Origin: an uncultured delta proteobacterium
Lineage (GTDB): Bacteria > Myxococcota > Myxococcia > Myxococcales > Anaeromyxobacteraceae
Assembly: GCA_963757745.1 (NCBI GenBank)
Contig: CAVWSG010000007.1
Coordinates: forward strand, 490,932-554,931
Length of the DNA: 64,000 bases
Direction of reading: 5' to 3'
Part shown: in pieces, positions 4,981 through 34,713 of the stretch
How positions within the stretch are numbered: position 1 is the stretch's first letter
Layout: every line of letters starts with the position of its first letter
Translations under genes and position numbers: made by a program
The notes under the pieces: generated by a model
Database searches by the model: none
What the model saw: the letters and a program-made list of their open reading frames with translations, nothing else
Told to the model about the DNA's origin: nothing

Positions 4981-5956
<976 letters not shown>

Positions 5957-5963
5957 CGCCGGC

Positions 5964-7338: not shown

Positions 7339-8338
7339 GAACGCCCTCGAGCCGTGCGGTGCGCACCTCGAGCTCGCCCTTCAGGAAGAGCTCGCCGGCC
7401 CGGTAGCTCGACCGCACCAGGGGTCCGCTCGCCACGTAGCGGAAGCCGTGCTCGGCCCCCAGCTTTTCGTAGCGCCGGAAGCGCTCCGGCGAGACCCACT
7501 CGACCACCGGGAGGTGCCACTCGGAGGGGCGAAGGTATTGACCCAGCGTGAGGATTTCGACCTTGGCGGCGCGCAGGTCGCGCATGGCCTCCTCGACCTC
7601 CGCCTCCTCCTCGCCGAGCCCCACCATGAGGGACGACTTCGTCGCCACCCCGGGGAACTCCTGGCCCATGCGCGAGAGCACCTCCAGCGTCTGGTCGTAG
7701 CCGGCCCGCGCGTCGCGCACGGCCGGGGTGAGACGGCGCACCGTCTCCAGGTTGTTGGCGAAGACGTCAGGACCGGCGCGCCCCACCGCCCGCACCGCCT
7801 CGGGGTCGCCGCGGAAGTCGGGCGTGAGGACCTCCACCAGGAGCCCCGGGATCTCCTTCAGGCACACGATGGCCTCGGCGAAGTGCCCGGCGCCGCCGTC
7901 GGGGAGGTCGTCGCGGTCGACGCTCGTCACCACCACGTAGTCGAGGCCGAGCGCGCGAATGGCGTCGGCGAGGTGGCGCGGCTCCTCGGGGTCGAGCGGG
8001 GGTGGCCGGGCGGCCGTCTTCACCTGGCAGAAGCGGCAGGCGCGGGTGCAGGTGTCGCCCATGAGCATCACGGTGGCGGTGCCGCCGCCCCAGCACTCGG
8101 CGACGTTGGGGCAGTGCGCCTCGGCGCAGACGGTGTGGAGCCGCAGGGTGCCGAGCGTCTCCTTCACCCGCGCGTACCGCTCGCCTCCGGCGACGCCCAC
8201 CCTCAGCCAGGACGGTTTACGCGCAGTACGAGGCATGCCCGCAGCGCGCAGGCCCGCCAGCACCTCGGCGCGGCCGGCGGCGACAGGGGCGGCCACCGCG
8301 GGCACCACCGGAAGGCTTTTCTTCGGGATCTCGTCCAT
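7328..8338 (-). CDS. lipA: Lipoyl synthase
   Basis: [14 protein letters not shown] and CTRACRFC radical-SAM / auxiliary cluster motifs; 336 aa. Confidence 0.95.
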
Positions 8339-11435: not shown

Positions 11436-11981
11436 TCACCTCCAGACGTCGATGGTCCTTCCCTTGTAGCCCGCCTCGCGGAGCACGAGGCCTCCACCCT
11501 TCCAACGGCGCGCGGCCGCCGGCCCGACCCACCAGCCCTTGGGGTCGCTCCGGCGGAAGGACTTCCGCAGCCAGTCCTGCAGCTCCTCGTAGATGGCGCG
11601 CAGCCCGCGGTGCTTCCCCTCCCGGCTCACCGGGTCGTCGGTGATGTCGAGCTCGGCCCAGATCCCTCCGGCCACCAGCTCACCATTCTCCGCGGTGAGC
11701 GACCGCTCGAGGTGGAGCACCGGCGAGGGAATCTCCTCGATGGCGAGGAGCCCCTTGTCCGGGCCGCGCTTCACCGGGTGCACCACCACCGGTCCGAGCC
11801 GCTCGGCGGCGAGGTAGTAGGCTCCGGCCACGAGGGCGGGCGGCAGCGCCTCGCCGACTGGCGGCGCCCGATAACCAGGCGGCACCAGCTCCGGGTAGAG
11901 GGTGAGCGCCTGGTGCGAGAGCGCGCGAAAGAGCGCGACCTCGTCCTCGGGCAGCGCAAAGAATCGGAGCGAAGCCGCCAT
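11436..11981 (-). CDS. Hypothetical protein
   Basis: ATG at 11981 with a GAGGTG RBS; its stop abuts the GTG of the downstream hydrolase; no family recognised. Confidence 0.45.
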   Translation of the reverse strand: MAASLRFFALPEDEVALFRALSHQALTLYPELVPPGYRAPPVGEALPPALVAGAYYLAAERLGPVVVHPVKRGPDKGLLAIEEIPSPVLHLERSLTAENGELVAGGIWAELDITDDPVSREGKHRGLRAIYEELQDWLRKSFRRSDPKGWWVGPAAARRWKGGGLVLREAGYKGRTIDVWR

Positions 11982-11982
11982 G

Positions 11983-13095
11983 TCACCTCTTCCTGCCCGC
12001 GCCGGGCTCGCGGGCCGGGGCGAGCGGGCGCAGGGTCCAGCGGACGAAGCGGACCTCGCCCACGTCCGATTGCATCTGCACGATCGTACCATCGGCGGCG
12101 AGCGCGAACTCGCGGAACTCGAAGCGCCTGTTGCCGGGGGGCACGCGCGCCGTGCCCATCACCTGGCCCTGCGCATCGATGGCGAGGAGCAGGACCTCGG
12201 CGCGGGCACCTTCGGCGCCCTCGATGCCGGGGTCGGCGGCCCCGTCGCGGCGGTCGAAGGCGAGCACCACCTCGCCGCGCCGCGAGACCCCGACGATGCG
12301 AACCTCCCCGATGGGCACCAGGGAGTGGAATTGCAGGCTACGCCGGGGCTGCCCGTCCAGGCCGAGGACGGTGAACCTCGCGCGCCAGCGGTCGAGGCGG
12401 TCGGCGCGCACGAAGAGGCTTCCCACCGGCAAGCCGGGGAGCGGCCCGTCGGCGCGCACGCCCCCCCAGGCGAGCTCCGCCCTCACCGCCTGGCCGTCGA
12501 GCATGAGGAAGACGGGCCGCTGGCGGCCGGCGAACAGGAGGTCCACGCCCTTGAAGGCCGGCGGCAGCGTGGCCGAGAGGAGGAGGCGGCCTCCCGGGTC
12601 GAGCTGCGAGAGCGTGGGGAGCTCGCCCTGCTGGAAGAGGTAGAGCTGCCCGTCGTCGTTCACCGCCAGATCGGCCTCAAAGGTCGGCTCCTCGCCGCTC
12701 CCGGCGCTCACAGCGCCCGCCGGCTGGCCGCGGGCGTCGAAGCGCTCGAGGCGCGCGTTCACCGGATCGAGCACCCAGAGAGATCCCTGGGGGCCGAGCG
12801 CGAAGGTGGGGGGCCCGAGCGCGTCCTCGTCGTCCCGGGCCGGGTTGCCCTGCAGCCCGAACTGCCCGGGACCCGCACCGGCGCCGCCGCGCACCCAGAC
12901 CTGACCGGCCGAGGGGGGTTCCGGTTGGCAGACCTCCCCGGGCAGCTCGAAATCCGGAACCTCCGGCGAGGCCGGCGGCGGGAATGTCTGCGCGGCCTCC
13001 GGCGCGGGCGGCTCGCCTGGCGCGGGCTCGGCCGAGCCTCCGTGGAGCGCGGCCAGCAGGGCGAGGGCGAGGAGGCGGGCGAGCACGCGCGGCAT
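11983..13095 (-). CDS. Secreted hypothetical protein (signal peptide MPRVLARLLALALLAALHGGSA)
   Basis: N-terminal signal sequence followed by a Pro-rich segment and repeated beta-rich segments; stop is 1 nt from the next gene's ATG. Confidence 0.5.
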   Translation of the reverse strand: MPRVLARLLALALLAALHGGSAEPAPGEPPAPEAAQTFPPPASPEVPDFELPGEVCQPEPPSAGQVWVRGGAGAGPGQFGLQGNPARDDEDALGPPTFALGPQGSLWVLDPVNARLERFDARGQPAGAVSAGSGEEPTFEADLAVNDDGQLYLFQQGELPTLSQLDPGGRLLLSATLPPAFKGVDLLFAGRQRPVFLMLDGQAVRAELAWGGVRADGPLPGLPVGSLFVRADRLDRWRARFTVLGLDGQPRRSLQFHSLVPIGEVRIVGVSRRGEVVLAFDRRDGAADPGIEGAEGARAEVLLLAIDAQGQVMGTARVPPGNRRFEFREFALAADGTIVQMQSDVGEVRFVRWTLRPLAPAREPGAGRKR

Positions 13096-13243
13096 GATAG
13101 TCGAAGGGGCTGCCGAGGTGCCGGTGTCGCGAAAGCGGAGGAGGGTGCCCGTGCCGCAGGGCGCGCCTCGGCGGCGACTCGCGGGCCGGTCCCGCCACGC
13201 AGCGGGCGCCGCCCGCCCGCGCTTCACGGAAGGTGATTGAGCT

Positions 13244-14845: not shown

Positions 14846-15541
14846 TCACCTCTCGGGCGCTCCGCCGGAGCCGGTCAGACGGCCGGCCAGCCTCCGGAAG
14901 GCGACCTCGGTCTTGGCGTCCTGGATCTCTCCCGACTCGCAGGCCGCCACCGCCTCCGCCAGCATCCGCCAGCGCAGGAGGGCGCCCTCCTCCAGCGGCG
15001 AGCCATCGCCGCCCTCCGGGGCGTCGGAGGATGCCGGCCCCTCGCCGCGCGCCACCTCGGCGGCGAGGAGGTGAATCTTCTCGGAGGCGACGCCCGGCAA
15101 CATGAAGAGGGGACCGCCCAGGAGCTCGAACCGCGCAGGCGGCACCTCGATCCCGGCCTCCTCGTGCACCTCGTCGGCGCTGCGCTGCTGCAGGGCCGCG
15201 AGGCCCCGCTCGCCCGGCTCGAGCACGCCGGCCACCACCTCCTCGAGGAGGAGATACTCCTCCTCGGGCAAGGCCGGCGTCTTCCCGCGGCGGAAGTAGG
15301 AGGCCGGCCGGAGGCCGCAGCGGGTGAGCACCTCCACCCCGCGCGGGCCCCGGGCCCAGATCGCCACCGCCACCGCGTCGAGGGTGGGCCGGTCGATGAG
15401 GTCGATGGGGTACTCGCGCGAGCGGCTGCCGTCCTCGCGGACGTTGCGCGCACGAAGTCGCTTCAGGCGCAGGAACCCTTCGTCGCAGCGGGAAGTGGCG
15501 GTGCGGTCCTCGACCACCTCGATGGAGCGGATACGCGGCAT
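14846..15541 (-). CDS. NUDIX-family hydrolase
   Basis: Degenerate NUDIX box [27 protein letters not shown]; ATG at 15541 or 15553. Confidence 0.55.
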
Positions 15542-18063: not shown

Positions 18064-19077
18064 ATGGCCCACGGCGTCGTCGACAGCGAGCGAGCCACCG
18101 CCCTCGTCACAGGGGCCGGGGGCTTCCTCGGCCGCACGCTCGTCAGGGCGCTCCTGGAGAGGGGCTACCGGGTGCGCGCCATGATCCGGCCGGGAGGCGA
18201 CGCGGGCGCGCTCCGACCCGTGGAGGGCGAAGCACTCGAGATCTTCCGCGGGGACGCGACCGACGCGGCCGCCCTGGATCGCGCGGTGAAGGGGTGCGCG
18301 CTCGTCTATCACCTGGCCGGCGTGCGCCGCGGCGCCCGGCGGGAGGACTTCTTCGCGGTGAACGCCGGCTCCACTCGGCTCCTGCTCGAGGCCTGCGCCG
18401 CGGCCGGAGCCGGGGGGCAGCGGTTCGTGCTGGCCGGCTCGCTCGCCGCGGCGGGGCCCTCGCGCGATGGGCGGCGCGAGGAGGACCCGGGGGAGCCCGC
18501 CGAGTGGTACGGAGAGTCGAAGGCGGAGGCGGAGCGCCTCGCCCGCTCCTTCCGGGGTTCGCTGCCCGTGAGCATCGGGCGGCCGCCCCGCATCTTCGGC
18601 CCGGGCGACCGCGAGAACCTCCTCTTCTTCCGCCTCGCCGCGCGAGGGGTGGTGCTGCGCTTCCTCGGGCCGGAGCGGCCCCTCTCCTGGATCGACGTCG
18701 ACGACTGCGCCCGCGGCTTCCTCGCGCTGGGAGAGCACCCGGCTGCAGCGGGAGAGGACTTCTTCCTCTCCTCGCCGGAGCGCACCAGCGTCACCGGCCT
18801 GCAGCGCGAGGTGGCGCGCGCGCTCCACGTGAAGACCTTCGACGTGCCGGTGCCGCCCGCGCTCCTCTCCGGGCTCTCCTGGGCGGCCGATGGGCTCTCG
18901 CGCCTCACGCACCGGAGGCTCCCGCTCAACCGCAAGCTGGCGCGGCAGATCCTCGCACCCGGGTGGACCTGCGATCCCGGCAAGGCGGAGCGCCTCCTCG
19001 GCTTCCGGACCGGGGTCGCGCTCGCCGAGTCCCTCGCCCGCTCGGCAGACTATTATCGCGGCGAAGGATGGTTGTAG
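18064..19077 (+). CDS. NAD(P)-dependent epimerase/dehydratase (extended SDR)
   Basis: LVTGAGGFLGRTLVRALLERGYRV Rossmann fold ... YGESKAEAE (YxxxK). Confidence 0.85.
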   Translation: MAHGVVDSERATALVTGAGGFLGRTLVRALLERGYRVRAMIRPGGDAGALRPVEGEALEIFRGDATDAAALDRAVKGCALVYHLAGVRRGARREDFFAVNAGSTRLLLEACAAAGAGGQRFVLAGSLAAAGPSRDGRREEDPGEPAEWYGESKAEAERLARSFRGSLPVSIGRPPRIFGPGDRENLLFFRLAARGVVLRFLGPERPLSWIDVDDCARGFLALGEHPAAAGEDFFLSSPERTSVTGLQREVARALHVKTFDVPVPPALLSGLSWAADGLSRLTHRRLPLNRKLARQILAPGWTCDPGKAERLLGFRTGVALAESLARSADYYRGEGWL

Positions 19078-19138
19078 GATTCGCCCCCCACACACCGATG
19101 CCAGGGCCACAGCCAAGAGAGCCGGACGTCACCCGCGC

Positions 19139-19816
19139 ATGAGCGATCAGAAGCGAGCCGCGTTCTTCGACGTCGAGGGGACGCTGGTCCGGACCAACAT
19201 CGTTCACGCCTTCGCCTTCTACGCGGTGAACGGGGGCGGCATCTTCGGCAGCGCCTGGCGCACCGCCCGCACGGTGATGGGGGTGCCGCTCTTCTGGGCG
19301 CTCGACAAGGTCGACCGGCGCACCTTCAACGAGCTGTTCTACCGCTCCTACCGCGGGCTCACCGAGGACCGGCTGCTGGCGCTCTCGCAGGAGCTCTTCG
19401 AGGAGGTGCTGCGCCCGGCGATCTTCCCTGGCACCCCGAAGCTGGTCGACGAGGCGCGCCGCGCTGGCTGCCGCATCGTGCTCGTCACCGGCGCCCTCGA
19501 CTTCACCGCCCGGGAGCTGGCGCGCCACCTCGGCGCCGACGACCTCATCGCCAACCGCATGCACTTCGTGAAGGGCTTCGCCACCGGCCGGGTGGTCCCG
19601 CCCATCGTCGAGGGGGCTCACAAGGCGGTCATCGTGCGCGACTACTGCGTGCGCGAGGGGCTCGCCCTCGACCGCAGCCACGCCTACTCCGACTCGTTCT
19701 CCGACTACCCCATGCTGGCGGTGGTTGGCCATCCGGCGGCCGTGAACCCCGACCTCCGCCTGCGCAGCGTGGCCCGCTCCTACGACTGGCCCATCTTCGA
19801 CACCACGGAGGGCTGA
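19139..19816 (+). CDS. HAD-IB superfamily hydrolase (phosphoserine-phosphatase-like)
   Basis: [11 protein letters not shown] (DxxGT motif I) ... VTGALDFTA ... [10 protein letters not shown]. Confidence 0.8.
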
Positions 19817-19817
19817 C

Positions 19818-21436
19818 GTGCCCCCTCGCCCCGCGCCCCGACTTTCCCGCCTCTACGATCAGTCCGAGCCGGTGGTCACCATCGACCGCGACTCTGCGCC
19901 GCGCGTCATGTTCTCCGGGGAGGACCTCCTCCTGGAAGACCTGCCGATTGGGACCAGGGTCGTCTACCCGAAACCGCCGATCGCCGGGCTCCCCAACCCT
20001 CGGGCGGCGGTGCGCTGGGCCATCAACCACCCCGAGGGGTGCGACCCGCTCCACGCGCAGCTCCGGCCGGGGATGAGGGTCACCATCGCCATCGACGACA
20101 TCTCGCTGCCGCTGCCGCCCATGCGGACGCCCGATGCGCGCAGCGGGTGCTGGAGGTGGTGCTGGAGCTCCTCGCCGACGCCGGGGTGGACGACATCCAC
20201 CTGGTCATCGCGATCTGCCTGCACCGGCGGATGACCGACGCCGAGGTGAAGCGGATGGTGGGCCCCAACATCTTCGACGCCTACTACCCCGACCGGCTCT
20301 ACAACCACGACGCCGAGGATCCCGACGGCCTCGTCACGCTGGGAACCACCGCCCACGGCGAGTCGGCGAGCTGAACCGGCGCGCTGCCGAGTCCGACCTC
20401 GTCATCTACGTCAACCTGAACCTCGTCCCCATGGACGGGGGCCACAAGTCGGTCGGCACCGGCCTGACCAATTACCGGGGCGTGAAGGCGCACCACACCC
20501 CGCACCACATTCGCAAGAGCGACTCCTACATGGATCCGGATCGCTCGGAGATGCACCGCTCGATCGACCGCATGGGCCAGCTCATCGACCGCGAGCTGAA
20601 CGTGTTTCACATCGAGACCACCATCAACAACCGCATGTTCGACGGGCCGATGGAGTTCCTCATGCGGCGCGAGGAGGCCTGGACCGAGATGGACCGGCTG
20701 AAGCTCGCCGGCCTGCGCGCCGCGCTCGCGAGGATGCCGCGCGCTGCCCGCCGCAGGATCTTCCAGGCGGTCCCGGCGGCCTACGAGGTCATCGCGGTGC
20801 ACGCCGGCCGCACCGAGGCCACCCACCGGAAGATCCTGGAGCGGAGCTGGGAGCAGTACGCCGTCGACGTCGACTTCCAGGCCGACATCGCCATCGTCGG
20901 CATCCCCTACATCTCGCCCTACAACGTGGACTCGATCTTGAACCCGCTGCTGGTGCAGGTGATGGCCTGCGGCTACCTCTTCAACCTCTACCGCGGCAAG
21001 CCCCTCATCAAGAAGGGCGGCACGCTCATCATCACGCACCCGTGCACCGACGAGTTCGACCCGGAGCAGCACCCGAGCTACATCGAGTTCTTCCACCGCC
21101 TGCTGCCCGAGACGCGCGACGCCGAGGTGCTGGAGCGGAAGTACGAGCTGGAGTTCGCCGAGAACCCGAGCTACGTGCACATGTACCGGACCGGCCACGC
21201 CTACCACGGCGCGCACCCCTTCTTCATGTGGTACTGGGGCGAGAACGGTCGCCAGCACGTCGGCCGCGATCATCGCGGTGGGCGCCGAGAACGAGCACGT
21301 GCCGCGCATGTTGGGCTGGGAGAGCGCCGAGCGCCTCTCCGACGCCATCGACATGGCCCGCGCCCGCCAGGGCCGCAGCGCGCAGGTGGCGATGTTCCAC
21401 ATCCGCCCCATCGCCCTGACCCAGAACCTCGGATGA
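19818..21436 (+). CDS. LarA-family (lactate racemase-like, DUF2088) protein; reading frame interrupted three times in this sequence
   Basis: Three segments in three frames reassemble one LarA-like protein: ...[23 protein letters not shown] | [40 protein letters not shown]...LGTTAHGE | [23 protein letters not shown]...[20 protein letters not shown] | [21 protein letters not shown]...[11 protein letters not shown]. The stop TGA overlaps the next ATG (ATGA). Confidence 0.75.
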
Positions 21437-24400
21437 GCTCTCGGTCCGACAGCCGGCCGGCGCCCGCGATGCCCGCGCCCCGAGCCGGGGCGAGCGAGCC
21501 CGGCGCAACCGTCCGGCCGCCGCTCGACGTCGCCGCCGCCCTGCGCGGAAGGAAGCTCCTCATCACCGGCGCCACCGGCTTCGTGGGCAAGGTGATGCTC
21601 TCGATGCTGCTCCACCGCTATCCCGGGGTGGGCCAGGTCTTCGTGCTGGTTCGGCCCGGCACCGGCGGCACCCCCGACGCTCGCTTCTTCGGCAAGGTGG
21701 CCGAAGGGCGTCCCTTCGACCCGGTGCGCGCCCAGCACGGCGAACGTTACGCTGCGTTCATGCGCGAGAAGTGCGTGCCGCTGGCCGGCGACGTCACCCA
21801 CCCCATGCTCGGGCTCTCCGCCGCAGATCTAGCAGCGCCTGGAGGGGCTCGCCGCGGTGGTGAACTGCGCCGGCCTCGTCGACTTCAACCCCTCGCTCGA
21901 GCTGGCGCTCAACGTGAACGTGGCGGGCGCCGCCCACGGGGCCGAGCTGGCCAAGGCCGCCGGCTCCGTCCTCATCCACGTCTCCACCGCCTTCGTGGCC
22001 GGCAACCGAAGCGGCGTGGTCTTCGAGGACGAGCCCATCGAGGGCTACTTCCCCAGGCGCGGCGACGTGGAGGGCCGGCCCTCGCAGGACGACCGCGAGG
22101 CGCGCGACCCGCGCGACTTCGACCTCGACCGGGAGATCGCCGACTGCCAGCGCGCCATCGCCCGCGTGCGGCAGGAGGTGGACGACGCCGCCGTGGTGGC
22201 CGAGCTGCGCGCCCGGGCCCAGGAGCGGCTTCGAGGCGAGGGACGCGGCCGGGGCGACGAGAAGGCGGAGCGGCTCGCGCTGGGGCGGGAGAAGCGCCTG
22301 TGGATCTCGCAGCGGCTGGTGGCGCTGGGGATGGAGCGCGCCAGGGCCTGGGGCTGGCCCAACACCTACACCTACACGAAGAGCCTGGGCGAGCAGGCCA
22401 TCGTGAGGAGCGGCGGGCGACACGTCCTGGTGCGCCCCTCCATCGTGGAGACGGCCCTGCGCTACCCCTTCCCCGGCTGGAACGAGGGGTTCACCACCAG
22501 CGCGCCGCTCGCCTTCCTGGGCCTGAAGGGCCACCGCGTCTACCCGATGGGCGAGCGGACCATCCTCGACATCGTTCCGGTCGACCTCATCGCCGCAGGC
22601 ACCCTCGCCGTCATGGCCGAGGCCATCGGCGGAGCGCCCGAGCGCGTCTACCACCTCGCCTCGGGCGACGTGAACCCCTTCTACGCGCGGCGCACCGTGG
22701 AGCTCGTGGGCCTCCACCGCCGCCGCATCTTCCTCCGCCGCGAGTCGGGCCAGAAGCTCGTGAACCAGCTCCGCGCGCGGGTGGAGCCCTACTCGGTCTC
22801 GCGCGCCCACTACCGCGCGTTCAGCACGCCGGCGCTCACCCGCCTGGCGGGCGCCGCCGCCAGGTTCCTGCGCGAGGAGGGGCGGCAGTGGGGCGCGCCG
22901 CGCCTCTCCGCGCTGGCGAGCCGCGCCGCCGACGCCGCCGACGAGGTGGAGAGCAAGCTCGCCCAGACCGAGCTGCTCTTCGACCTCTTCATGCCCTTCA
23001 TCTGGGACAACCGGTACCTCTTCCGCTGTGCCCACATGCGGGAGCTCTTCGGCCGGCTTTCCCCCGAGGACCAGGCCCGGCTCCCCTGGGATCCCCACGC
23101 CATCGACTGGCGCTCCTACTGGCTCGACGTCCACCTGCCGGGCATGGAGGAGTGGGTCTTCCCCGGGCTGGAGGAGGAGTCGAAGCGCAAGGTGCACGGC
23201 GTGCGGACCCACCGCGACCTCCTGGAGCTCTTCCAGGCCTCCTGCCAGACGCACCGGCAGCGGGTGGCGGTGCGGATGAGCGGCTCGCGCAAGGAGCGCT
23301 ACACCTTTGGTGAGCTCCGCGCGGCCGCCGAGCGGATGGCGGGCAGTCTTGCCGCGGCCGGCGTGGCGAAGGGCGACCGGGTCCTGCTGGTGAGCGAGAA
23401 CCGGCCCGAGTGGCCGGTGGCCTTCTTCGGCATCCTGATGGCCGGCGGGGTGGTGGTGCCCGTCGACGCGCAGGCCCCCGAACCGGAGGTCGAGAACCTG
23501 GCCCGCAGCTCGGGCGCGAAGGCGGCGCTCCTCTCCGACGAGGTCGAGCTGCGCCTCGAGGAGCTCGCCGCACGCTGGCAAGGTGGCGCCGGACCGCAGG
23601 TTCTCCCGCTCGCCGAGGCGCTGGCGGGAGACCCGGCGCGGGCACCCCGCGTCGCGCCCCCCGGGGCCGAGGAGGTGGCGGCGCTCCTCTACACCAGCGG
23701 CACCTCCTCGGCCCCCAAGGGCGTCCTCCTCACCCACCGCAACTTCACCAGCCTGGTGGCGAAGCTGGCGAGCCTCTTCGACGTGGGGCCGGGCGACGCC
23801 CTCCTCTCGGTGCTCCCGCTCCACCACACCTTCGAGCTCACCTGCGGCATGCTCGTGCCCTTCTCGCGCGGCGCCGAGGTGGAGTACCTCGACGAGATCA
23901 CCGTCGACACGCTGGGTGATGCCCTGGAGAGCGGCCGCATCACCGCCATGATCGGGGTGCCGGCGCTCTGGTCGCTCCTGCACCGGCGCATCACGCAAGA
24001 GCTGGCGGCGCGGCCAGCCTGGGTGGAGGGTACGGCGAAAGCGCTCATGGGCGCCCACGGCAGCCTCCGCGAGCGGCTCGGCGTGAACCTCGGCAAGCTC
24101 CTCTTCTGGCCGGTTCACCGGCGGCTGGGCGGGCGGCTCAGGCTCCTCGTCTCCGGTGGCTCGGCGCTCGACCCCGCCGTGCAGAAGGCCTTCCACGAGC
24201 TGGGCCTCGATCTCCAGGAGGGGTACGGCCTCACCGAGGCGGCGCCGGTGCTCGCCGTCGCGAACCCGCGGGAGGACGGACTCGCGGCTGGGGTGGGCCA
24301 CGCCATCCCCGGGGTCGAGCTGCGCATCGACGCGCCCGACGCGTCCGGCGTGGGCGAGGTGCTGGCCCGGGGGCCGAACGTGATGCTCGGCTACGCGCGC

Positions 24401-25936
24401 GCTGGCGCTTCTTCACCCGAGGTGGACGAGGCGCTCACCGGGGAGGTGCTCTCGGACGGCTGGCTCCGCACCGGCGACCTGGGGCGGCTCGACGCGGCCG
24501 GGCGGCTCGTCCTGTGCGGCCGCAAGAAGGACCTCATCCTCTCCGCCGACGGACACAACGTCTACCCCGACGACGTGGAGGAGCTGTACCGCTCCGAGGA
24601 TCTCCTGAAGGAGCTCTCGGTGGTGGGCCTCCGCGAGGGCGGTCCCGGGGCGGGTGGCGAGGAGGCGGGCCTGCACGAGCGCGTGGCCATGCTGGCGGTG
24701 CCCGCCTGCCGGGGAAGGGAGCGCGCCGCGGTGCACCAGCTCATCGAGGCACACGTGAGGGAGGTCTCGGCGCGCCTGCCCTTCCACCAGCGGGTGAAGG
24801 TGTGGCACCTCACCGAGGTGGAGCTGCCCCGCACCGCCACGCGCAAGGTGAAGCGCGACTTCGTGGCCACCGAGCTGGCGCGCCTGGAAGCGCTGGCCCG
24901 GCGGCCGGAGCGACCCGAGGGCGCTCGCCCCGCGGGCGGCGACGCCTGGCTCCTCGACCTGGTGGCGGAGGTCTCCCGGCGCGCCCGCGATTCGGTCCGC
25001 CTCTCCTCGAAGCTCGGAGGCGACCTCGGCTTCGACTCGCTCATGCTCACCGAGCTCGCCGCCGCGCTGGAGCAGGCCGGGGCACCCGCGACCGTCACCG
25101 AGCACCTCCAGTCGTACGACACGGTGGCGGATCTCTCGCGGGCGGTGAGCGCCTCGATGCCCCAGGTGGCGGCCCGCCACGCGGTGCAGGTCACGGACCC
25201 CGCCTCGACCGGCGGCGCCGCCCGCGCTGGCGAGGAGCGGGCCGGAGAGCTCTTGGTCCCCGAGCCGGTCGCTGCGCTCGGGCGCCGGCTCCTGGGCCTG
25301 GGCCAGCGCATCCTCTACCGCGACGTCTACGCCACCACCGTGCGAGGCAAGGGATTCATCCCGCACGACCGCAACTTCCTGGTGGTGGCGAACCACCAGA
25401 GTCACCTCGACATGGGCCTGGTGAAGGTGGCGCTGGAGGAGGAGGGCTCGAAGCTGGTGGCGCTCGCCGCGGCCGACTACTTCTTCGACACGCCGCTCAA
25501 GCGCGCCTACTTCGAGAACTTCACCAACCTCATTCCCATGGATCGGGCGGGCTCGGTGCGCCGCAGCCTGCGCGCCGCCGTCGCCGCGCTCCGGCAGGGG
25601 CAGCACCTCCTCATCTTCCCCGAGGGCACCCGCTCGCGGGGCGTGGAGATGGCCTCCTTCAAGCCCACCGCCGGCTACCTCGCCCTGCACTGCGGGGTGG
25701 ACACCCTGCCCGTCTTCCTCCGCGGCACGCACGAGGCGCTCCCGGCCGAGTCGCTCCTGCCGCGCTCGGCCAAGCTGGAGGTGATCATCGGGAGGCCCAT
25801 CTCGGTCTCGGAGCTGCGCCGGCAGACGGCGGAGCTTCCCAGGGGCGAGGCGCACAAGGAGGCGACCCGCATCATGGAGGCCGCCGTGCGCGCCCTGGGC
25901 GGTCCGGCCGGCGGCACGGCCGGAGGACTCCCGTGA
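21433..25936 (+). CDS. Multidomain lipid enzyme, ElbD-like (about 1500 aa), one frame interruption near 21833-21841. Domains in order: fatty acyl-CoA reductase (NAD-binding), AMP-dependent acyl ligase, acyl carrier protein, lysophospholipid (AGPAT) acyltransferase
   Basis: FAR: [19 protein letters not shown]...VNCAGLVDF...[13 protein letters not shown]-binding: [21 protein letters not shown]...[30 protein letters not shown]-binding: [22 protein letters not shown]: [13 protein letters not shown]...[11 protein letters not shown]. Confidence 0.85.
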
Positions 25937-26928
25937 AGCTGCTCGTCACCGGTGGCACCGGCTTTCTCGGCTCCGCGCTGGTGCCCCTGCTCGTGCAGGC
26001 CGGGCACGCCGTGCGCGTCCTCGCCCGCGGCGACTCCGAGGAGGCGCGGGCCTCCGGCGTGGAGGTGGTGAGCGCCTCGCTGGAGGACCGCCCCGCCGTG
26101 CGCGCGGCGCTCCGGGGCGTGGAGGCGGTGTTCCACCTGGCGGGCCGGGTGGCCTTCGACGCCCGCGACCCGCAGGCCCTGTACCGGCTTCACGTGGAGT
26201 GCACGCGGACCCTCCTCGAGGACGCGCACGCCGCCGGGGTGGGCCGCATGGTGATGGCCTCCACCTCGGGGACCATCGGCATCTCGCGCGAGGAGAAGGT
26301 GCACGACGAGTCGGACCGCCACCCGATCCAGGTGGTGGCGCGCTGGCCCTACTACCTCTCCAAGATCTACCAGGAGAAGACCGCGCTCCGGTTCCACCGC
26401 GACACCGGCTTTCCGGTGGTGGCGCTGAACCCCTCGCTCCTGCTCGGACCCGGCGACGCGCGCCTCTCCTCCACCGACCTCGTCTTCAAGTTCCTGGAGC
26501 GGCGCATCCCGGCCATGCCCGGGGGCGGCCTCTCCTTCGTCGACGTGCGCGACACCGCGGCGGCCTTCGCCTCCGCGCTCACCCGGGGGCGCCCCGGCGA
26601 GCGCTACCTCCTCGGCGGCGCCAACATGACCTTCGCCGACTTCTTCACCCGCCTGTCACGCCTCTCCGGCGTGCGGGCGCCCGTGCTGCGCCTCCCCTCC
26701 GGGCTCAGCGTGGCCGGGGCCGGGCTCCTCGAGCGCTTCCACACCTGGCGCGGCACCGAGCCGCCGCTCTCGGTGGAGGAGGTCGACATGGGCGAGCACT
26801 GGTTCTACATCGACAGCGGCAAGGCGCGCCGGGAGCTCGGCTTCACCTCGCGTGACCCCGGCGAGACCTTGCACGAGACGGTGAGCTGGCTCGACCGCCA
26901 CGTGCGGCAGGTGAGGAAGGACCGCTGA
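25934..26928 (+). CDS. NAD-dependent epimerase/dehydratase family protein (SDR)
   Basis: [20 protein letters not shown]...YYLSKIYQE; the GTG overlaps the upstream stop (GTGA). Confidence 0.85.
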
Positions 26929-26979: not shown

Positions 26980-28266
26980 CTACGACAGGAACGCGGCGTC
27001 GATCTCGGCCACCTGCGCGGCGTCGATGGGGACGAGCTTCCCCAGAGCGCGGGAGGCGAGGAGCGCCTTGGCGCTGTACTCGGCCACCTCCAGGCGGTCG
27101 AAAGCGTTGAGGAGCGAGCTGCCGGTGACGATGACGCAGTCGTTCTCCACCAGCGCGAGCGGCCGCTCCGCGGTGAAGGCGGCGGCGGTGCCCTGCGGAT
27201 CCATGAAGGTGCAGCCGAAGGGCAGCTTCTCCACCTTCCGCAGCAGGATGTAGCTCTCGGGGATGGTGCGCGAGTCGAACGCCTCGCCGGTCACCGCGAA
27301 GGCCATGATGGCGGGCGGGTGGGCCACGATCACCGAGCGGACGTGCGGGTGGCGCGCGTAGATGGCCTCGTGCAGCACCACGGAGCGGCTCGGGAGCTTC
27401 CCCGCCTCGTGCGCGCCGCCCTCCACCCGGACGAGATCCTTCTCGGCGAGATAGCGGCGGTCGAAGCCGTAGGGCGTGATGATGAAGCCGCCTTCGGGGA
27501 GGCGCTGCGAGAAGGTGCCCTGGGTGCTGGTGAAGAGGAGCTGGTCGCAGGCGCGGCGGACGAGCTGGCACAGCTCGCGCCTGAGCGACCGCTCCTCGCT
27601 CGAGGCCGGGCGCGGCGGGAGCTCCGGCATCTGGACGTGCTGCTTGTGGCGTGAGAGGGCAATCTGCTCCTCGGAGAGGCCGCGCGGGGCGCCGATGCGC
27701 ACCGCCCCGAGCTCCAGCCGGGCGCAGAAGTCGAGCGTCTCGAAGGCCATGAAGGCGCGGAAGAGGTCCTCGCCGCCCACCACCGCCCCGTGGTTCTCGA
27801 GCAGCACCGAGTCGCACCCCCGGGCGAAGACGGCGGCGATCTTGGCGCCCAGGTCGGCGCTGCCGGGGAGGCCATAGGGCGCGAGCCCCACCTCGCCGCA
27901 GACGATGCGGGCGTTGGGGACGAGCGAGGTGTCGGGGAGCCGCCGGACGATGCTGAAGGCCACCAGCGCCGGCGGGTGAGCGTGGACGATGGCGCGGAGC
28001 TCGGGCCGGGCGGCGTAGATCTGCTGGTGAAAGGGCAGCTCCACCGACGGCTTGTGGATGCCCTCCACCGCGCCCCCCGGCCGCACCCGCATGACGTCAC
28101 GGGGGGTGAGCGAGCCCTTGTCGACGCCGCCGGGCGTGATCCACAGGTCGCCGTTCTCCTCCAGGATGGAGAGGTTCCCGCCCGAGGTGGTGGTCATGCC
28201 ATAGGCGTAGATGCGCTCCATGATCATGACGAGCTGCTCGGCGGGGTGCAGAAGGTCGAAATCCAT
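26980..28266 (-). CDS. Tandem (duplicated) class II aldolase/adducin-domain protein
   Basis: Two consecutive class II aldolase domains, each with the HxHxxH metal-ligand pattern (AIVHAHPPALVAF and SVIVAHPPAIMAF); no N-terminal extension. Confidence 0.8.
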   Translation of the reverse strand: MDFDLLHPAEQLVMIMERIYAYGMTTTSGGNLSILEENGDLWITPGGVDKGSLTPRDVMRVRPGGAVEGIHKPSVELPFHQQIYAARPELRAIVHAHPPALVAFSIVRRLPDTSLVPNARIVCGEVGLAPYGLPGSADLGAKIAAVFARGCDSVLLENHGAVVGGEDLFRAFMAFETLDFCARLELGAVRIGAPRGLSEEQIALSRHKQHVQMPELPPRPASSEERSLRRELCQLVRRACDQLLFTSTQGTFSQRLPEGGFIITPYGFDRRYLAEKDLVRVEGGAHEAGKLPSRSVVLHEAIYARHPHVRSVIVAHPPAIMAFAVTGEAFDSRTIPESYILLRKVEKLPFGCTFMDPQGTAAAFTAERPLALVENDCVIVTGSSLLNAFDRLEVAEYSAKALLASRALGKLVPIDAAQVAEIDAAFLS

Positions 28267-28320
28267 GGGCGCGGATCTAGGATCTCGCCTTCGCGGCCGC
28301 CCGCACTTCGAGAAGGCGGG

Positions 28321-29442
28321 CTACTTCCCCAGCGCGCGCACCAGCTCGTCGGTGACCCGCCGCACCAGCTCCTCCGCCTCGGGGTCGCGCCCGTCGGAGA
28401 CGCGCCCGGCGGCCACCGTGACGCCCGGCCGCCAGGAGAGGTTGTCGCAGAGCTCGCACTCCTTCAGCCCTTGCCGCGGGTCGGGGATCCCCAGGCCCTG
28501 CTTGATCTTGAGGAGATCCTGCACCTGCTTCGGCGCGATGAAGTTCGGCTCCTTGCCGAGCTGCGCGGTGACGAGCACCGTGCGGCAGTAAGCCTCCACG
28601 ATCTCCATCTTGAAGTAGGCGTCCTCCACGCCGAAGCCCCAGGCCACCACGCCGTGGTTCGCCATCAGGATGGTGTTGTGGCAGTCGGCGAGCTTCGCCA
28701 CCTCGTCGCCCATGCCCTGGGTGCCGGGCGTGAGGTAGGGCGCGATGGGCACCACCCCGCACATGACCTCCATCTCCGGGATCATGCAGGAGGGTGGCTG
28801 CACCCCCGAGACGGCGAAGCCGGTGGCGTGGGGGGGGTGGGCGTGCACGCAGGCCTTGGCCCTGGGCTGCGCCTTGTAGATGGCGAGGTGCATGAGCAGC
28901 TCGCTGGTGCGCCGCCTTCCGGGCGTCTTCTGCACGCCTTCCAGGTCCACCAGGCAGAGGTCCTCGGGCTTCATGAAGCCCTTCGAGACCAGTGTGGGGC
29001 TGCACAGCACGAGATCCTCGGCCACCCGGATGGAGATGTTGCCGCCGTTGCCGTCGACGTAGGCGCGCTGCCAGAGGCGCCGTCCGATGTCGCAGATCTC
29101 CAGCTTGTGCGCCTCGATGGCCGGCGAGCGGAAGAAGCGCTCGATCTCGCTGGGCGCCACCCTGGGGAGGGCGGGCGTGGCCGCGCTCGCAGGGGCGGCG
29201 GGCGCAGCGGAGGCCGCGGGCTTCTCGTAGGCCCCCCCGGCCGCCGGAGCGCCCACGCCGTTCGCCCTGGCTGCGGGAGCCGCGTGCGAGGGCGACAGGA
29301 CCATGGCCGCCCCGTTGCCGCGATCGCGCAGGAGGTCGCGCGCCGAGGGGGTGATGAGCGCGTCGGCGGGGATGGACTGGGCCAGGTCGGCCCCCTTGCG
29401 CAGCAGCTCTTCGACGTCGCGGGCGGAGATGACTCGTCTCAT
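28321..29442 (-). CDS. Class II aldolase (fuculose/rhamnulose-1-phosphate aldolase family) with an N-terminal ~110-aa extension that includes a candidate BMC encapsulation helix
   Basis: MRRVISARDVEELLRKGADLAQSIPADALITPSARDLLRDRG, then an Ala/Pro-rich linker, then an aldolase core (CVHAHPPHATGFAV, GVVPIAPY). Its ATG overlaps the BMC-P stop (ATGA). Confidence 0.8.
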   Translation of the reverse strand: MRRVISARDVEELLRKGADLAQSIPADALITPSARDLLRDRGNGAAMVLSPSHAAPAARANGVGAPAAGGAYEKPAASAAPAAPASAATPALPRVAPSEIERFFRSPAIEAHKLEICDIGRRLWQRAYVDGNGGNISIRVAEDLVLCSPTLVSKGFMKPEDLCLVDLEGVQKTPGRRRTSELLMHLAIYKAQPRAKACVHAHPPHATGFAVSGVQPPSCMIPEMEVMCGVVPIAPYLTPGTQGMGDEVAKLADCHNTILMANHGVVAWGFGVEDAYFKMEIVEAYCRTVLVTAQLGKEPNFIAPKQVQDLLKIKQGLGIPDPRQGLKECELCDNLSWRPGVTVAAGRVSDGRDPEAEELVRRVTDELVRALGK

Positions 29443-29738
29443 GATTTGGGCCTGTAGGTGACGTCGTCGACGATGGCCACGTCGATGGCGTCGATGGGGG
29501 TTTTCTGCGGGAAAGGCTGGGCCGCCTCGCGGCCCTCCACGAAGCCGATGGTGTCGCCCACGCCCGCGCCGAGGTCGTCGTAGACCACCAGCGAGGGCTC
29601 GCGGGAGAGGGGGGGCGGCTCCGCCCCCTGCTGCATGTGCTCGCGGTCGAATGGGCACACGAGGAAGAATCGGCCGCCGGTGAGGGCGGGCGAGGAGACG
29701 CTCAGGGTCACCCTCCCGACCACCTGCCCGAGCCTCAC
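29439..29738 (-). CDS. BMC vertex protein (BMC-P, EutN/CcmL/PduN family), copy 3
   Basis: (V)RLGQVVGRVTLSVSSPALTGGRFFLVCP...VVYDDLGAGVGDTIGFVEG...PIDAIDVAIVDDV; the GTG start overlaps the upstream BMC-P stop. Confidence 0.8.
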   Translation of the reverse strand: MRLGQVVGRVTLSVSSPALTGGRFFLVCPFDREHMQQGAEPPPLSREPSLVVYDDLGAGVGDTIGFVEGREAAQPFPQKTPIDAIDVAIVDDVTYRPKS

Positions 29739-30001
29739 GGGAGGCCTCGCTCGGGCTCGTCGACCACGCCCACGATCATGAGCCTCACCGGGCTCTTCGG
29801 GTCCTTCACCACCAGGCGCGCCCCGAGTCCGTCGGTGGAGACGATGACGCGGGAGTGCATCCCGGCGCCGTGGGGATCGATGGCCACCACCGCCGGTCCG
29901 TTGGGCGTGCCCTCGCCGTCGATGGGCTGGCAGAGGAGGAGCTTCCACCCGTCGAAGCTGGGGTGCTTGCGGGTGGCCACCACCTGGCCCTCGACGCGCA
30001 T
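29735..30001 (-). CDS. BMC vertex protein (BMC-P), copy 2
   Basis: MRVEGQVVATRKHPSFDGWKLLLCQPIDGEG...AVVAIDPHGAGMHSRVIVSTDG...VRLMIVGVVDE. It forms the C-terminal end of a long spurious ORF in the track. Confidence 0.8.
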   Translation of the reverse strand: MRVEGQVVATRKHPSFDGWKLLLCQPIDGEGTPNGPAVVAIDPHGAGMHSRVIVSTDGLGARLVVKDPKSPVRLMIVGVVDEPERGLP

Positions 30002-30012
30002 GAGCTGCACGG

Positions 30013-31518
30013 TCAGTAGATCCGAAGGTTCTCGGACATCACGCATCGACGGATGCGGGTGAAGGTGGCCGGGTTGGTGATGCCCTCCCCGGTGGGCGTG
30101 GCGATGGTGTAGGAGAGGTACCCCTCCCCACCCATGCCGAGGCCGGCCACCGACGGTCCGTTCTTCACGAAGAGCGTGGTGTCGAGCGCCCGCGCCATGG
30201 CGGTCATGCGGCTCACGTCGTGCGAGTGGATGATGGCGGTGTGGCGGAAGCCGTGCTCGGCGCGGAGCGAGCAGGCGATGCCCTCCTCCACCGACTTCAC
30301 CCGCACCACCGGGAGCACCGGCATCATCTGCTCCTCCATCACCCACAGGTCGTCGGCCGCCGTCTCGGCGAAGAGCACCTGCGTGTCGGCCGGCACCTGC
30401 GCGCCCGCCTCGCGGGCGAGGACGGTGGCGTCGCGGCCCACCAGGTCGCGGTTCACGCTGGCGTGGGAGCAGCCCGCCCCCTGCCCCTGCGGGAAGACGA
30501 AGGCGGAGCGGCTGAGCCGCTCGAGCTGCGAGGTGCCGAGTCGGAAGCCGCGCGCCCGCTCCATGGCCGCCATGAAGCGGTCGAACACCGGGGCGAGGAC
30601 GAAGATCTCCTTCTCGCCGATGCAGAGCAGGTTGTTGTCGAAGGCGGCGCCCTGCACGATCTTGCGGGCCGCCGCCTCGAGGTCGACGGTCTCGTCGACC
30701 AGCACCGGCGGGTTGCCTGGTCCGCCGCAGATGGCCCGCTTCGAGGACTGCATGGCCGCCTTCACCACGCCGGGGCCGCCGGTGATGCAGAGGAGCTTCA
30801 CGTGCTCGTTGGCGGTGAGCTCGGCAAAGCCCTCCAGGGTGGGCGCCTCGATGCAGCAGATGAGGTTCTCGATCCCCAGCTCGTGATGGATGGCCTCGTT
30901 GAAGGCGCGCACGGCCACGCTGGCGCAGCGCGCGGCGCCGGGGTGCGGGTTGAAGACGATGCCGTTCCCGCCCGCCACCATGCTCACCACGTTGCCGGCC
31001 AGCGTGGGGATGGAGTGGGTGGAGGGGGTGACCGCGCCGATGACGCCGAAGGGCGTGTGCTCCTCGAGGGTGATGCCGCCGTCGCCGGAGAGGCCGGTCG
31101 GGTGGAGGAACTCGACCCCGGGGACGTTCCGGACCACCTGCAGCTTCTCGATCTTGTGGTCGAGGCGGCCGATCTTCGTCTCCTCGAGCTCGAGGCGCCC
31201 CCACTCGGCGGCGTTGTCGTAGGTGATCTTCTTGACCAGCTCGATCACCCGCTGCCGGCCGGCGACGCCCTTCTCCCGGAGCTGCCGGAAGGCGGCGTCG
31301 GCCGCCTCGCACGCCTCGTCGACGTCGCCGAAGACGCCGTAGTGGCGCCCGCCGCTCGCCTTGGCGCACGTCCCGGCGTGCGAGCAGGTCCCGCTCGCCG
31401 CCGGCTGGGTTGGTGCCGGGGCGCGCGCGACGCCGTTCTGGCCCGCGCCGCGCCCGAGCTGACCCAGGATCTCCTGGACGATGTCTCGGACCAGGGTTTC
31501 GTCGATGGCTGTTCTCAC
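30013..31518 (-). CDS. CoA-acylating aldehyde dehydrogenase (PduP/EutE-like) with an N-terminal encapsulation peptide
   Basis: (V)RTAIDETLVRDIVQEILGQLG amphipathic helix plus linker, then an ALDH core (VIGAVTPSTHSIPTL ... ICGGPGNPPVLVDE ... catalytic Cys in CIGEKEIFV). GAGGAG lies 5 nt before the GTG. Confidence 0.9.
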   Translation of the reverse strand: MRTAIDETLVRDIVQEILGQLGRGAGQNGVARAPAPTQPAASGTCSHAGTCAKASGGRHYGVFGDVDEACEAADAAFRQLREKGVAGRQRVIELVKKITYDNAAEWGRLELEETKIGRLDHKIEKLQVVRNVPGVEFLHPTGLSGDGGITLEEHTPFGVIGAVTPSTHSIPTLAGNVVSMVAGGNGIVFNPHPGAARCASVAVRAFNEAIHHELGIENLICCIEAPTLEGFAELTANEHVKLLCITGGPGVVKAAMQSSKRAICGGPGNPPVLVDETVDLEAAARKIVQGAAFDNNLLCIGEKEIFVLAPVFDRFMAAMERARGFRLGTSQLERLSRSAFVFPQGQGAGCSHASVNRDLVGRDATVLAREAGAQVPADTQVLFAETAADDLWVMEEQMMPVLPVVRVKSVEEGIACSLRAEHGFRHTAIIHSHDVSRMTAMARALDTTLFVKNGPSVAGLGMGGEGYLSYTIATPTGEGITNPATFTRIRRCVMSENLRIY

Positions 31519-31832
31519 GGTGCTCCTCGTGCGGAGTAGATGATCTTTCCGAGCACGTCGACCTCGTCGACGATGCCGATGATGACGGCGTCGACCGGGG
31601 CGCGGTCGAAGCCCGGCGCCAGGCGAGCCGAGCTCCCCTGGCAGAACAGCACCAGCTCACCCTCGCCGGCGCCCACGCTGTCGACCGCCACCACGGTGTT
31701 GGTCCCTGGGCGGAAGCGCGAAGGGTCGACGTCGTCGACGAGCTGCGGCCGCAGGAGCAGCAGCTTGCGGCCCGACATGGCGGGGTCTTTCTTGGTCGCC
31801 ACCACCGACCCCAAGACGCGCGCCAGGAACAT
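31515..31832 (-). CDS. BMC vertex protein (BMC-P), copy 1
   Basis: MFLARVLGSVVATKKDPAMSGRKLLLLRP...VVAVDSVGAGEGELVLFCQGSSAR...AVIIGIVDEV. Confidence 0.85.
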   Translation of the reverse strand: MFLARVLGSVVATKKDPAMSGRKLLLLRPQLVDDVDPSRFRPGTNTVVAVDSVGAGEGELVLFCQGSSARLAPGFDRAPVDAVIIGIVDEVDVLGKIIYSARGAP

Positions 31833-31837
31833 GGGGG

Positions 31838-32164
31838 CTACTTTCCCTTCGGCGAGGGGGCAGCGGGCGTCTCGGGCGGCGTGGCCGACCTGGGCAGCAC
31901 CTGGCCCACGTCGTCGTGCGGGCGGGCAATGACGTGCACCGAGGCCACCTTGCCGCCCACCGCGCGCGCCGCCGCGGCGCCGGCATCGGTGGCGGCCTTC
32001 ACCGCGGCCACGTCGCCCACCACCACCGCGGTCACGAGGCCGCTGCCCACGTGCATCATCGGACCGGCGAGCTGCACGTTGGCCGCCTTCAGCATGGCGT
32101 CCGTGCCCTCCACCAGGGCCACCAGGCCCACCGTCTCCAGCATCCCGATCGCTTGAATCGCCAT
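31838..32164 (-). CDS. BMC hexamer shell protein (BMC-H, PduA/EutM-like)
   Basis: [34 protein letters not shown]...[23 protein letters not shown]...SVHVIARPH. Confidence 0.9.
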
Positions 32165-32212
32165 GTGTTCTCCCAGGGTGAAAGCTTCACGCCGTCGAAA
32201 GAGTTCCGTCCT

Positions 32213-33409: not shown

Positions 33410-33432
33410 GGTTGGGTGATCTCCCCGCGCGC

Positions 33433-33711: not shown

Positions 33712-33728
33712 TGTCGTCTATTCTCCGG

Positions 33729-33998: not shown

Positions 33999-34039
33999 CT
34001 CCACTCTCCTCACTGGTTTGTCGTTCGGACCCGGGCTCT

Positions 34040-34711: not shown

Positions 34712-34713
34712 CG

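Follow-up and report, generated by a model that had tools for sequence, protein, structure and literature searches.

I analysed a LarA-like gene carried by a 64,000-nucleotide stretch of an uncultured delta proteobacterium of the Anaeromyxobacteraceae (GenBank assembly GCA_963757745.1, contig CAVWSG010000007.1; hereafter the window, with a G+C content of about 72%), where it lies in a lipid operon and its reading frame is broken at three points. The gene is very probably an orthologue of elbC, belonging to Group 15 of the LarA homologues (LarAH), in an elbA–E operon. The three breaks, together with a fourth in the adjoining elbD, most likely reflect single-base errors of assembly or base calling, and not pseudogenization. 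For the protein I tentatively propose, as a possibility that is still far from established, a hydride step in ether-lipid synthesis that would depend on the nickel-pincer nucleotide (NPN). Taken as a whole, the combination of this identity, of artefactual breaks and of the proposed role is probably the best explanation of the locus. The operon and the gene family are already known and curated, and there is little new for the window itself; the wider interest, which is general and not specific to this window, is that a presumably nickel-pincer-dependent enzyme accompanies the bacterial ElbD ether-lipid pathway.

The elbA–E operon was first described in Myxococcus xanthus, for the synthesis of ether lipids and plasmalogens (Lorenzen et al., 2014, as reviewed in PMC9131029). 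In this operon elbD, which is MXAN_1528 (PMC11980068), is a multidomain gene combining fatty-acyl reductase, acyl-CoA synthetase, acyl carrier protein (ACP) and acyltransferase parts; it is needed for alkyl and vinyl ether lipids, and ElbD is the main route to the alkyl ether lipids of M. xanthus (PMC9131029). The products of elbA and elbE are NAD-dependent epimerase/dehydratase proteins and that of elbB is a HAD-like hydrolase, while elbC, which flanks elbD, is labeled as a protein “of unknown function” (PMC9131029). Since elbD is MXAN_1528 and elbC flanks it, I infer that MXAN_1529 is elbC. The supplement of Desguin et al. (2020, Sci Rep 10:18123) places this same protein and four Anaeromyxobacter orthologues (Adeh_1166, A2cp1_1327, AnaeK_1225 and Anae109_1213) among the LarA homologues, under “Group 15, unknown function”, and gives for the group the residue signature Asp72=D, Arg75=L/V, His108=H, His174=gap, Lys184=K, His200=H and Lys298=N, and a gene context (COG0451, COG0560 and COG1022) of HAD, epimerase and acyl-CoA-synthetase genes. 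An earlier reading of the window, made from the letters alone (hereafter the sequence-only reading), had stated that the association of a LarA-like gene with ether-lipid chemistry had no obvious precedent; this has to be corrected, as the published elbC of the elbA–E operon (PMC9131029), Group 15 (Desguin et al., 2020) and the curated family NF052592 are all precedents. The two literatures have stayed apart, in that ElbC is an unknown for the ether-lipid papers, and Group 15 is an unknown with lipid-type neighbors for the nickel-pincer papers. In the searchable literature, I found no paper linking DUF2088 or lactate racemase to elbD or ether lipids, nor one joining Group 15 to elbC.

In the window, five tightly packed genes on the + strand span positions 18064–26928 (Table 1). 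The first is 63% identical to the elbA of Anaeromyxobacter paludicola (tblastn). The second, elbB-like, scores 118.9 bits against the NCBIfam model TIGR01490 (cut-off 98.3), and its stop codon TGA (19814–19816) lies 1 nt ahead of the elbC start. The ATG of elbD, at 21433, overlaps the TGA of elbC (21434–21436), confirming the ATGA junction with an ElbD-like start inside a lipid operon that the sequence-only reading had reported, and pointing to translational coupling of elbC and elbD. This GGATGA junction is common to other Anaeromyxobacteraceae loci, and gaps of 0–30 bp between elbC and elbD are frequent elsewhere. At the far end, the GTG start of elbE overlaps the elbD stop (GTGA). The window thus has elbC where it is expected, preceded by the HAD gene elbB and followed by the multidomain elbD and then by elbE. 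Compared to the M. xanthus system, the window gene shares the place between elbB and elbD and the flanking short-chain dehydrogenase/reductase (SDR) genes elbA and elbE, and differs in carrying three single-base breaks and in its Anaeromyxobacteraceae-like host. Over the 398 residues of MXAN_1529 contained in the supplement of Desguin et al. (2020), the repaired protein shows 62% identity and 79% positives, with no gaps.

The identity of the protein was further assessed on the joined 539-residue sequence. Pfam detects Lar_N (PF09861; E-value 2.9e-33, 115.2 bits against a cut-off of 23.3), and does not detect LarA_C. The repaired ElbC scores 839.8 bits (cut-off 740) against the curated NCBIfam equivalog model NF052592, “NPN-dependent hydroxyacid isomerase, LarAH14/15/16 family”, over profile positions 2–518 of 520, close to the 849.8 bits of its A. 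paludicola counterpart. Both the alignment to MXAN_1529 and the NF052592 score thus support the assignment as ElbC. It also shares the Group 15 signature (Asp, Leu, His, a gap at His174, Lys, His) and the COG0451/COG0560/COG1022 neighbors, and I see no substantive difference between the window protein and Group 15/NF052592. Homologues are plentiful in Anaeromyxobacter, other Myxococcota and metagenomes, with identities of 87–65% and lengths that nearly all fall between 532 and 569 residues.

Among solved structures, the best sequence matches are 9q2u, 9q3k and 9q3j (E-value 1.5e-32 with the single sequence, 5.9e-39 with a family profile), and LarA of Lactiplantibacillus plantarum is matched at about 1e-11 in the same comparison. 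I modeled the fold on the closest intact relative (P0001), which is 87% identical to the repaired ElbC. The AlphaFold2 model is confident (pLDDT 88.7, pTM 0.89), and Foldseek aligns it to 9q3k and 9q3j with a target-normalised TM-score of 0.83, and to canonical LarAs with 0.71–0.79; nothing in the PDB beyond LarA-type structures came close in this search. ElbC is thus predicted to be a two-domain LarA-fold protein, and the sequence-only assignment to the LarA/DUF2088 homologues is borne out by Lar_N, by NF052592 and by this fold.

I then used an alignment of 83 ElbC sequences, from both Myxococcota and Acidobacteriota, to survey the active site. The sequence-only reading had proposed an alignment against the LarA catalytic residues, and its outcome is divided. 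Four equivalents are present and invariant in all 83 sequences, namely Asp94 (LarA Asp72, a ribose contact), His136 (His108, catalytic), Lys211 (Lys184, the covalent cofactor tether) and His227 (His200, the Ni ligand). Two are not: the position of Arg75 is Leu97, with Leu, Val or Met in every sequence, and the second catalytic histidine, His174, is absent, no His being found at that place of the aligned ElbC loop. This loop is shorter and reads N200-x-N202-[LF]-V-P-M-[DN]-G-G-H-K, with Asn200 and Asn202 invariant; two hidden Markov model (HMM) alignments disagree on what corresponds to His174, or to Asn185 of LarA(Sp), one giving Asn and the other a hydrophobic residue. An invariant arginine, Arg108, sits in an insertion specific to the ElbC family, and might substitute for Arg75, which binds the NPN phosphate in LarA.

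The nearest characterized proteins help to place these differences. LarA(Sp), from Streptococcus plurextorum, and LarA(Bw) (9q2u, 9q3k, 9q3j; Gatreddi et al., 2025; Group 17) are the best match of ElbC by sequence and by structure, at about 20–30% identity. Like ElbC they possess one catalytic His, the tethering Lys and the Ni-binding His, do not conserve Arg75, and align through the C-terminal domain; they differ in having an Asn at the His174 position in a longer loop, and in a context of glycolysis and triose phosphate genes, where that of ElbC is made of lipid genes (PMC12611868). Groups 14 and 15 lack a His174 equivalent and Group 17 has an Asn there (Gatreddi et al., 2025). LarA(Sp), with its single His and a Lys replacing Arg75, was nevertheless solved with NPN bound (PMC12611868), and single-His LarA homologues might catalyse hydride transfer, according to a 2026 Nat Chem paper. 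With LarA of L. plantarum (5HUQ), ElbC shares the fold (TM-score 0.71–0.76) and the equivalents of Asp72, His108, Lys184 and His200; it differs by the Leu in place of Arg75, the missing His174, the undetected Pfam LarA_C, about 110 additional residues, and by not being clustered with larBCE.

Because the second catalytic His and Arg75 are missing, ElbC is predicted not to be a LarA-type racemase. A conventional racemase or epimerase of 2-hydroxy acids, acting on 2-hydroxy fatty acids or on lactate from the rhamnose/fucose microcompartment encoded next to the operon, and only incidentally part of the operon, would agree with the fact that every characterized LarA homologue racemises or epimerises 2-hydroxy acids (PMC11770544), and with the microcompartment locus and the rhamnose isomerase and sugar-kinase genes found directly downstream. 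I nonetheless regard it as highly improbable: the His required for inversion and the carboxylate-binding Arg75 are absent, Lys298 is also missing in Group 15 according to the table of Desguin et al. (2020), and the repaired protein reaches just 69.1 bits against the canonical lactate racemase model NF033504 (cut-off 460). In addition, the linkage to elbB and elbD is kept across two phyla, and the adjacency to a microcompartment is absent in A. paludicola. Of the two roles suggested in the sequence-only reading, action on a 2-hydroxyacyl compound is thus weakened in its racemase form, and action on a glycerol-derived intermediate is a reasonable guess. A functional link between elbC and the microcompartment was considered separately and rejected, the adjacency not being conserved.

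The association with elbD was examined across genomes. A scan of one genome per species gave at least 588 loci, of which the best 80 were examined. These come from Anaeromyxobacteraceae, Myxococcaceae (including Corallococcus isolates), Polyangia and many Acidobacteriota (Pyrinomonadaceae, Blastocatellia and Chloracidobacterium); among the matches listed, the closest relatives of the window locus are at most 83% identical. I searched the loci by tblastn with the A. paludicola Elb proteins, counting elbD where at least 3 kb of downstream sequence was available. Of 67 such loci, 57 have elbD on the same strand after elbC, 42 of them at a distance of no more than 300 bp, and elbB precedes elbC in 58 of 66. 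A. paludicola and the closest metagenomic contig share the gene order of the window. The genes found between elbC and elbD, or after elbC where elbD is missing, are heterogeneous (MFS transporter, Sel1, AAA ATPase, methyltransferase, PilZ, M1 peptidase, or no Pfam hit), and no further conserved partner of elbC emerges among them.

In some loci elbC is not followed by elbD within the available stretch. This is the case for four metagenome-assembled genomes of Myxococcaceae/Archangium (L017, L020, L021, L026), which possess elbA/elbB-elbC, and for three other loci (L061, L071, L072); elbC can therefore be genomically uncoupled from elbD. Other Myxococcaceae (Corallococcus) have an intact elbB-elbC-elbD-elbE order.

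Related arrangements are also recorded in Actinobacteria. Group 14 (Acidimicrobium, Ilumatobacter) adjoins HAD, PlsC-type acyltransferase and thioester-reductase genes, and Group 16 (Frankia), where the tethering Lys is replaced by Gly, adjoins HAD and acyltransferase genes (Desguin et al., 2020). In COG terms, both groups adjoin COG0204 acyltransferases and COG0560, and Group 14 also COG3320 thioester reductases (Desguin et al., 2020, supplement). Related lipid-type clusters, with and without the cofactor-binding residues, may therefore occur outside Myxococcota and Acidobacteriota.

NPN enzymes transiently take a hydride from a C-H beside a hydroxyl (PMC11770544), and the steps of the ElbD pathway that lead from fatty acid to alkyl ether are undefined in the literature. 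In the role that I tentatively propose, ElbC would bind NPN supplied by lar genes at some other place in the genome, and would use it for a redox-neutral, non-inverting hydride step, probably by transiently oxidising a secondary alcohol of a phosphorylated lipid intermediate derived from glycerol. This intermediate would come from ElbD and be processed by ElbB and ElbE, and the step would help to form or process the sn-1 ether bond. In one possible variant, the sn-2 hydroxyl would be transiently oxidised, allowing chemistry at C1 (ether formation or exchange), before the hydride is returned. A phosphorylated substrate is suggested by the HAD partner and by the structural relatives: the closest structural subfamily adjoins triose-phosphate and glycolysis genes, and its ligand was tentatively modeled as a phosphorylated linear sugar (PMC12611868). 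With its presumed hydride-shuttling cofactor and its co-inheritance with ElbD in two phyla, ElbC is an obvious candidate for the undefined steps of the pathway, open to testing by M. xanthus genetics.

A more specific version of this proposal, which I consider distinctly improbable, would make ElbC the catalyst that is missing from the AGPS-independent, ElbD-dependent route to ether lipids. Here the hydride would be borrowed from the sn-2 hydroxyl of an intermediate of the acyl- or alkyl-glycerol-phosphate type, giving a transient ketone that would permit ether-bond formation at C1, or acyl-to-alkyl exchange, after which the hydride would be returned. The grounds for this version are the conserved cofactor residues, the synteny and analogy, and only these. 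If this were true, lipid metabolism would gain its first nickel-pincer enzyme, and the LarA homologues their first member with a chemistry other than racemization.

Several observations weigh against the proposed NPN-dependent role. The replacement of Arg75, which binds the NPN phosphate in LarA, by Leu means that cofactor binding is not guaranteed. No LarB (AIRC-type), LarC (DUF111) or LarE was found among the 58 coding segments of the window scanned with Pfam, and tblastn queries taken from annotated plasmids of L. plantarum and Rhodovastum gave zero larB, larC or larE matches in the window and in the 10-kb flanks of elbC, over 82 loci and 1.385 Mb in total. The sequence-only reading had already seen none in the 64 kb, which holds with both methods, and larBCE are never clustered with elbC in the loci examined. 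Many elbC carriers, such as Myxococcus and the Pyrinomonadaceae, are aerobes. LarA homologues are by comparison most prevalent in predominantly anaerobic taxa (PMC11770544). Finally, the effects of elbB insertions were ascribed to polarity on elbD (PMC9131029), and the reviews consulted report no elbC experiment.

On the side of cofactor supply, the strict conservation of the four residues concerned with cofactor and catalysis gives indirect support. Anaeromyxobacter genomes also encode LarA homologues with the canonical residue set, Anae109_3618 (Group 3) and Adeh_0469 (Group 24) (Desguin et al., 2020, supplement), which suggests that NPN is made in this genus. A COG-based survey reports a LarA homologue in 80–100% of Myxococcota species (PMC11770544). 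A search from Anae109_3618 gave two long-contig contexts, and larBCE were not found near the LarA homologues in either.

Part of this evidence would fit a different explanation, where ElbC has the LarA fold and no longer uses the nickel pincer. It would then depend on a different cofactor, or on none at all, and could serve as a scaffold or binding subunit of ElbD, or as an isomerase with acid/base residues alone. The absence of larBCE next to elbC, the change of Arg75 to Leu and the loss of the second His all point that way, as does the exclusion by Desguin et al. (2020) of the related Group 16, found in the same HAD/acyltransferase context, for not conserving the NPN-binding and catalytic residues. 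It would be hard, on such a view, to explain why all 83 sequences, drawn from two phyla, keep the tethering Lys, the Ni-binding His, the ribose-contacting Asp and the catalytic His. S. plurextorum LarA furthermore shows that NPN can be bound with a single His and without Arg75, and the family is curated at NCBI as NPN-dependent, under a name that is itself inferred. I therefore hold an ElbC free of the cofactor to be possible and on balance unlikely.

I next consider the integrity of the gene. The coding signal of elbC runs through four segments, in frames 0, 2, 1 and 2 (Table 1), and an alignment of the DNA with two intact relatives (alignment A1) shows that the gene is split by three 1-nt indels, so that the three frame breaks of the sequence-only reading stand. 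The length of 1619 nt is one less than 1620, and fits a protein of 539 residues. At break 1, the window reads GCGCG-CAG where relatives have GCGCGGCAG or GTGCGCCAG. The deletion of break 2 lies inside GAGTCGGCGAGC-TGAAC, where the nearby residues are unlike those of relatives, and at break 3 the window reads GGCCGCGATC, against GGCCGGATC or GGCCAGATC in relatives. A fourth break, which the sequence-only reading had not listed, is a 1-nt insertion in elbD at about 21832 (alignment A1 column 2070). It splits the Pfam NAD_binding_4 match, with profile positions 1–81 found in 21433–21831 and positions 89–256 from 21833 on. At break 2 of elbC and at the elbD break, the sequence is locally scrambled in the alignment. 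Programmed frameshifting was ruled out as a cause, since the breaks are conserved in none of 81 relatives and their directions differ.

Three housekeeping genes of the window, also additional to the sequence-only reading, are frameshifted as well. In the gene for the E1-alpha subunit of a 2-oxoacid dehydrogenase, the break lies at about 6742, and E1_dh profile positions 2–81 and 89–298 fall in different frames. That of E1-beta lies at about 5389, between the Transket_pyr and Transketolase_C domains, and that of phosphoenolpyruvate (PEP) carboxylase at about 50867, with profile positions 1–228 and 239–916 in different frames. Together, this makes seven verified single-base frame breaks in the 64-kb window, locally clustered. 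Since housekeeping genes are among those affected, the breaks are best explained as assembly artefacts, and their clustering suggests an error-prone, long-read-like assembly. Similarly split genes are found in the contig of the closest relative (L001), in a contig (L085) from a sample whose accession number is adjacent, and in other long-read-style assemblies.

The repaired protein tells the same story. Of 200 alignment columns without variation among 15 relatives, it retains 197, against 0 to 11 columns missed by intact members, and one of its three mismatches sits at break 2. It is no farther from outgroups than its intact sister P0001. The dN/dS ratio of elbC is 0.20 against L001, the second-lowest of the operon, and 0.37 against A. 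paludicola, the lowest, with similar values across all four segments; no in-frame stop codons or larger deletions are found in the repaired gene. As the repaired ElbC shows no relaxed constraint, the decay proposed in the sequence-only reading is unlikely.

The artefact explanation has to be weighed against a true pseudogene, in which the elbC and elbD frameshifts would be real, and the ElbD-type ether-lipid pathway recently lost or being lost. The distribution of the breaks speaks for real frameshifts: four of the seven lie within 1.7 kb (20140–21832), over elbC and the 5′ end of elbD, compared to three in the other ∼62 kb, and none is located in a long homopolymer. The local scrambling at two of the breaks points the same way. 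In each of 81 other elbC-carrying loci, elbC is a single unbroken high-scoring segment pair (HSP; tblastn), including in long-read assemblies where elbD is split into several HSPs, so that elbC is not generally error-prone. Against this stand the near-complete set of family-invariant residues, the undiminished constraint in all four segments and the absence of further lesions described above. The frameshifts in E1-alpha, E1-beta and PEP carboxylase, two of them 1.35 kb apart, moreover indicate that consensus errors do cluster in this assembly. On this evidence a pseudogene is rather unlikely, and the window frame breaks are best read as assembly noise, to be repaired ahead of annotation.

Table 1. 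Coordinates of the elb operon, its frame breaks and the frameshifted housekeeping genes in the window.
Feature	Position	Strand	Content or evidence
elbA-like NAD-dependent epimerase/dehydratase (SDR), operon gene 1	18064–19077	+	Pfam Epimerase, E 3.9e-32
elbB-like HAD-IB phosphatase	19139–19816	+	Pfam HAD, E 5e-34
elbC (LarA-like), operon gene 3	19818–21436	+	GTG 19818 to TGA 21434–21436
elbC segment 1, frame 0	19818–20141	+	N-terminus through the motif with Asp94 (= LarA Asp72)
Frame break 1, 1-nt deletion at about 20140	20138–20143	+	Alignment A1 column 324
elbC segment 2, frame 2	20141–20359	+	QRVLEVV...LHRRMT...TTAHG; holds catalytic His136 (= LarA His108)
Frame break 2, 1-nt deletion at about 20355	20350–20368	+	Alignment A1 column 556
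elbC segment 3, frame 1, 300 aa	20362–21261	+	Lys211 (= LarA Lys184) motif, AHH with His227 (= LarA His200), most of the C-terminal domain
Frame break 3, 1-nt insertion at about 21263	21260–21268	+	Alignment A1 column 1452
elbC segment 4, frame 2	21266–21436	+	Ends ...TQNLG, then stop
elbD start / elbC stop overlap, ATGA	21433–21436	+	Junction sequence
elbD-like gene: NAD_binding_4/Sterile (fatty-acyl reductase), AMP-binding ligase, PP-binding (ACP), Acyltransferase	21433–25936	+	Pfam
elbE-like NAD-dependent epimerase/dehydratase (SDR)	25933–26928	+	Pfam Epimerase, E 2.1e-35
E1-beta and E1-alpha, frameshifted	4984–7092	-	
PEP carboxylase, frameshifted	48899–51575	-	

The elb operon is directly followed by a convergent microcompartment locus (26986–40467, mostly on the - strand). 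Its shell genes are three of the EutN/CcmL pentamer type, three single-domain BMC and one tandem-BMC, and its enzymes comprise two class II aldolases (one with two aldolase domains), an aldehyde dehydrogenase, a PduL-type phosphotransacylase, an acetate kinase and an RnfC/Nuo51-like protein. Genes for an L-rhamnose isomerase, an FGGY sugar kinase and an AraC regulator come after these. The locus resembles those for rhamnose/fucose-degrading microcompartments of the Planctomycetes/Verrucomicrobia type. The closest contig, L001, has the same adjacency to the elb operon, and A. paludicola does not.

Other lipid-related genes are found at 42398–42853 (+), 47363–47713 (-) and 53895–57290 (+). This set consists of two 4HBT-type thioesterases, a long acyl-CoA dehydrogenase with an ACAD9/VLCAD-like C-terminus, and a wax-ester synthase/DGAT (WS_DGAT), whose acylation substrates could include products of the ElbD reductase domain, whether ether lipids or fatty alcohols.

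The operon of the 2-oxoacid dehydrogenase (E1-alpha, E1-beta, E2, E3) ends with an open reading frame (ORF) at 1017–2108 (-), where an LplA-B_cat domain (lipoyl/octanoyl ligase/transferase) is fused to a NUDIX hydrolase domain, and a lipoyl synthase gene lies upstream (7364–8206). Coding segments of 173, 359, 215, 151 and 82 residues have no Pfam match at E ≤ 0.001 (11445–13098 (-), 14888–15532 (-) and 40968–41968). Lastly, a 712-residue ORF at 60085–62220 (+), followed by an ABC permease and ATPase, has a Peripla_BP_4 match confined to its C-terminal 260 residues and no Pfam match in the N-terminal ∼420; it could be a fusion, a mis-joined gene pair, or a protein with a novel N-terminal domain.

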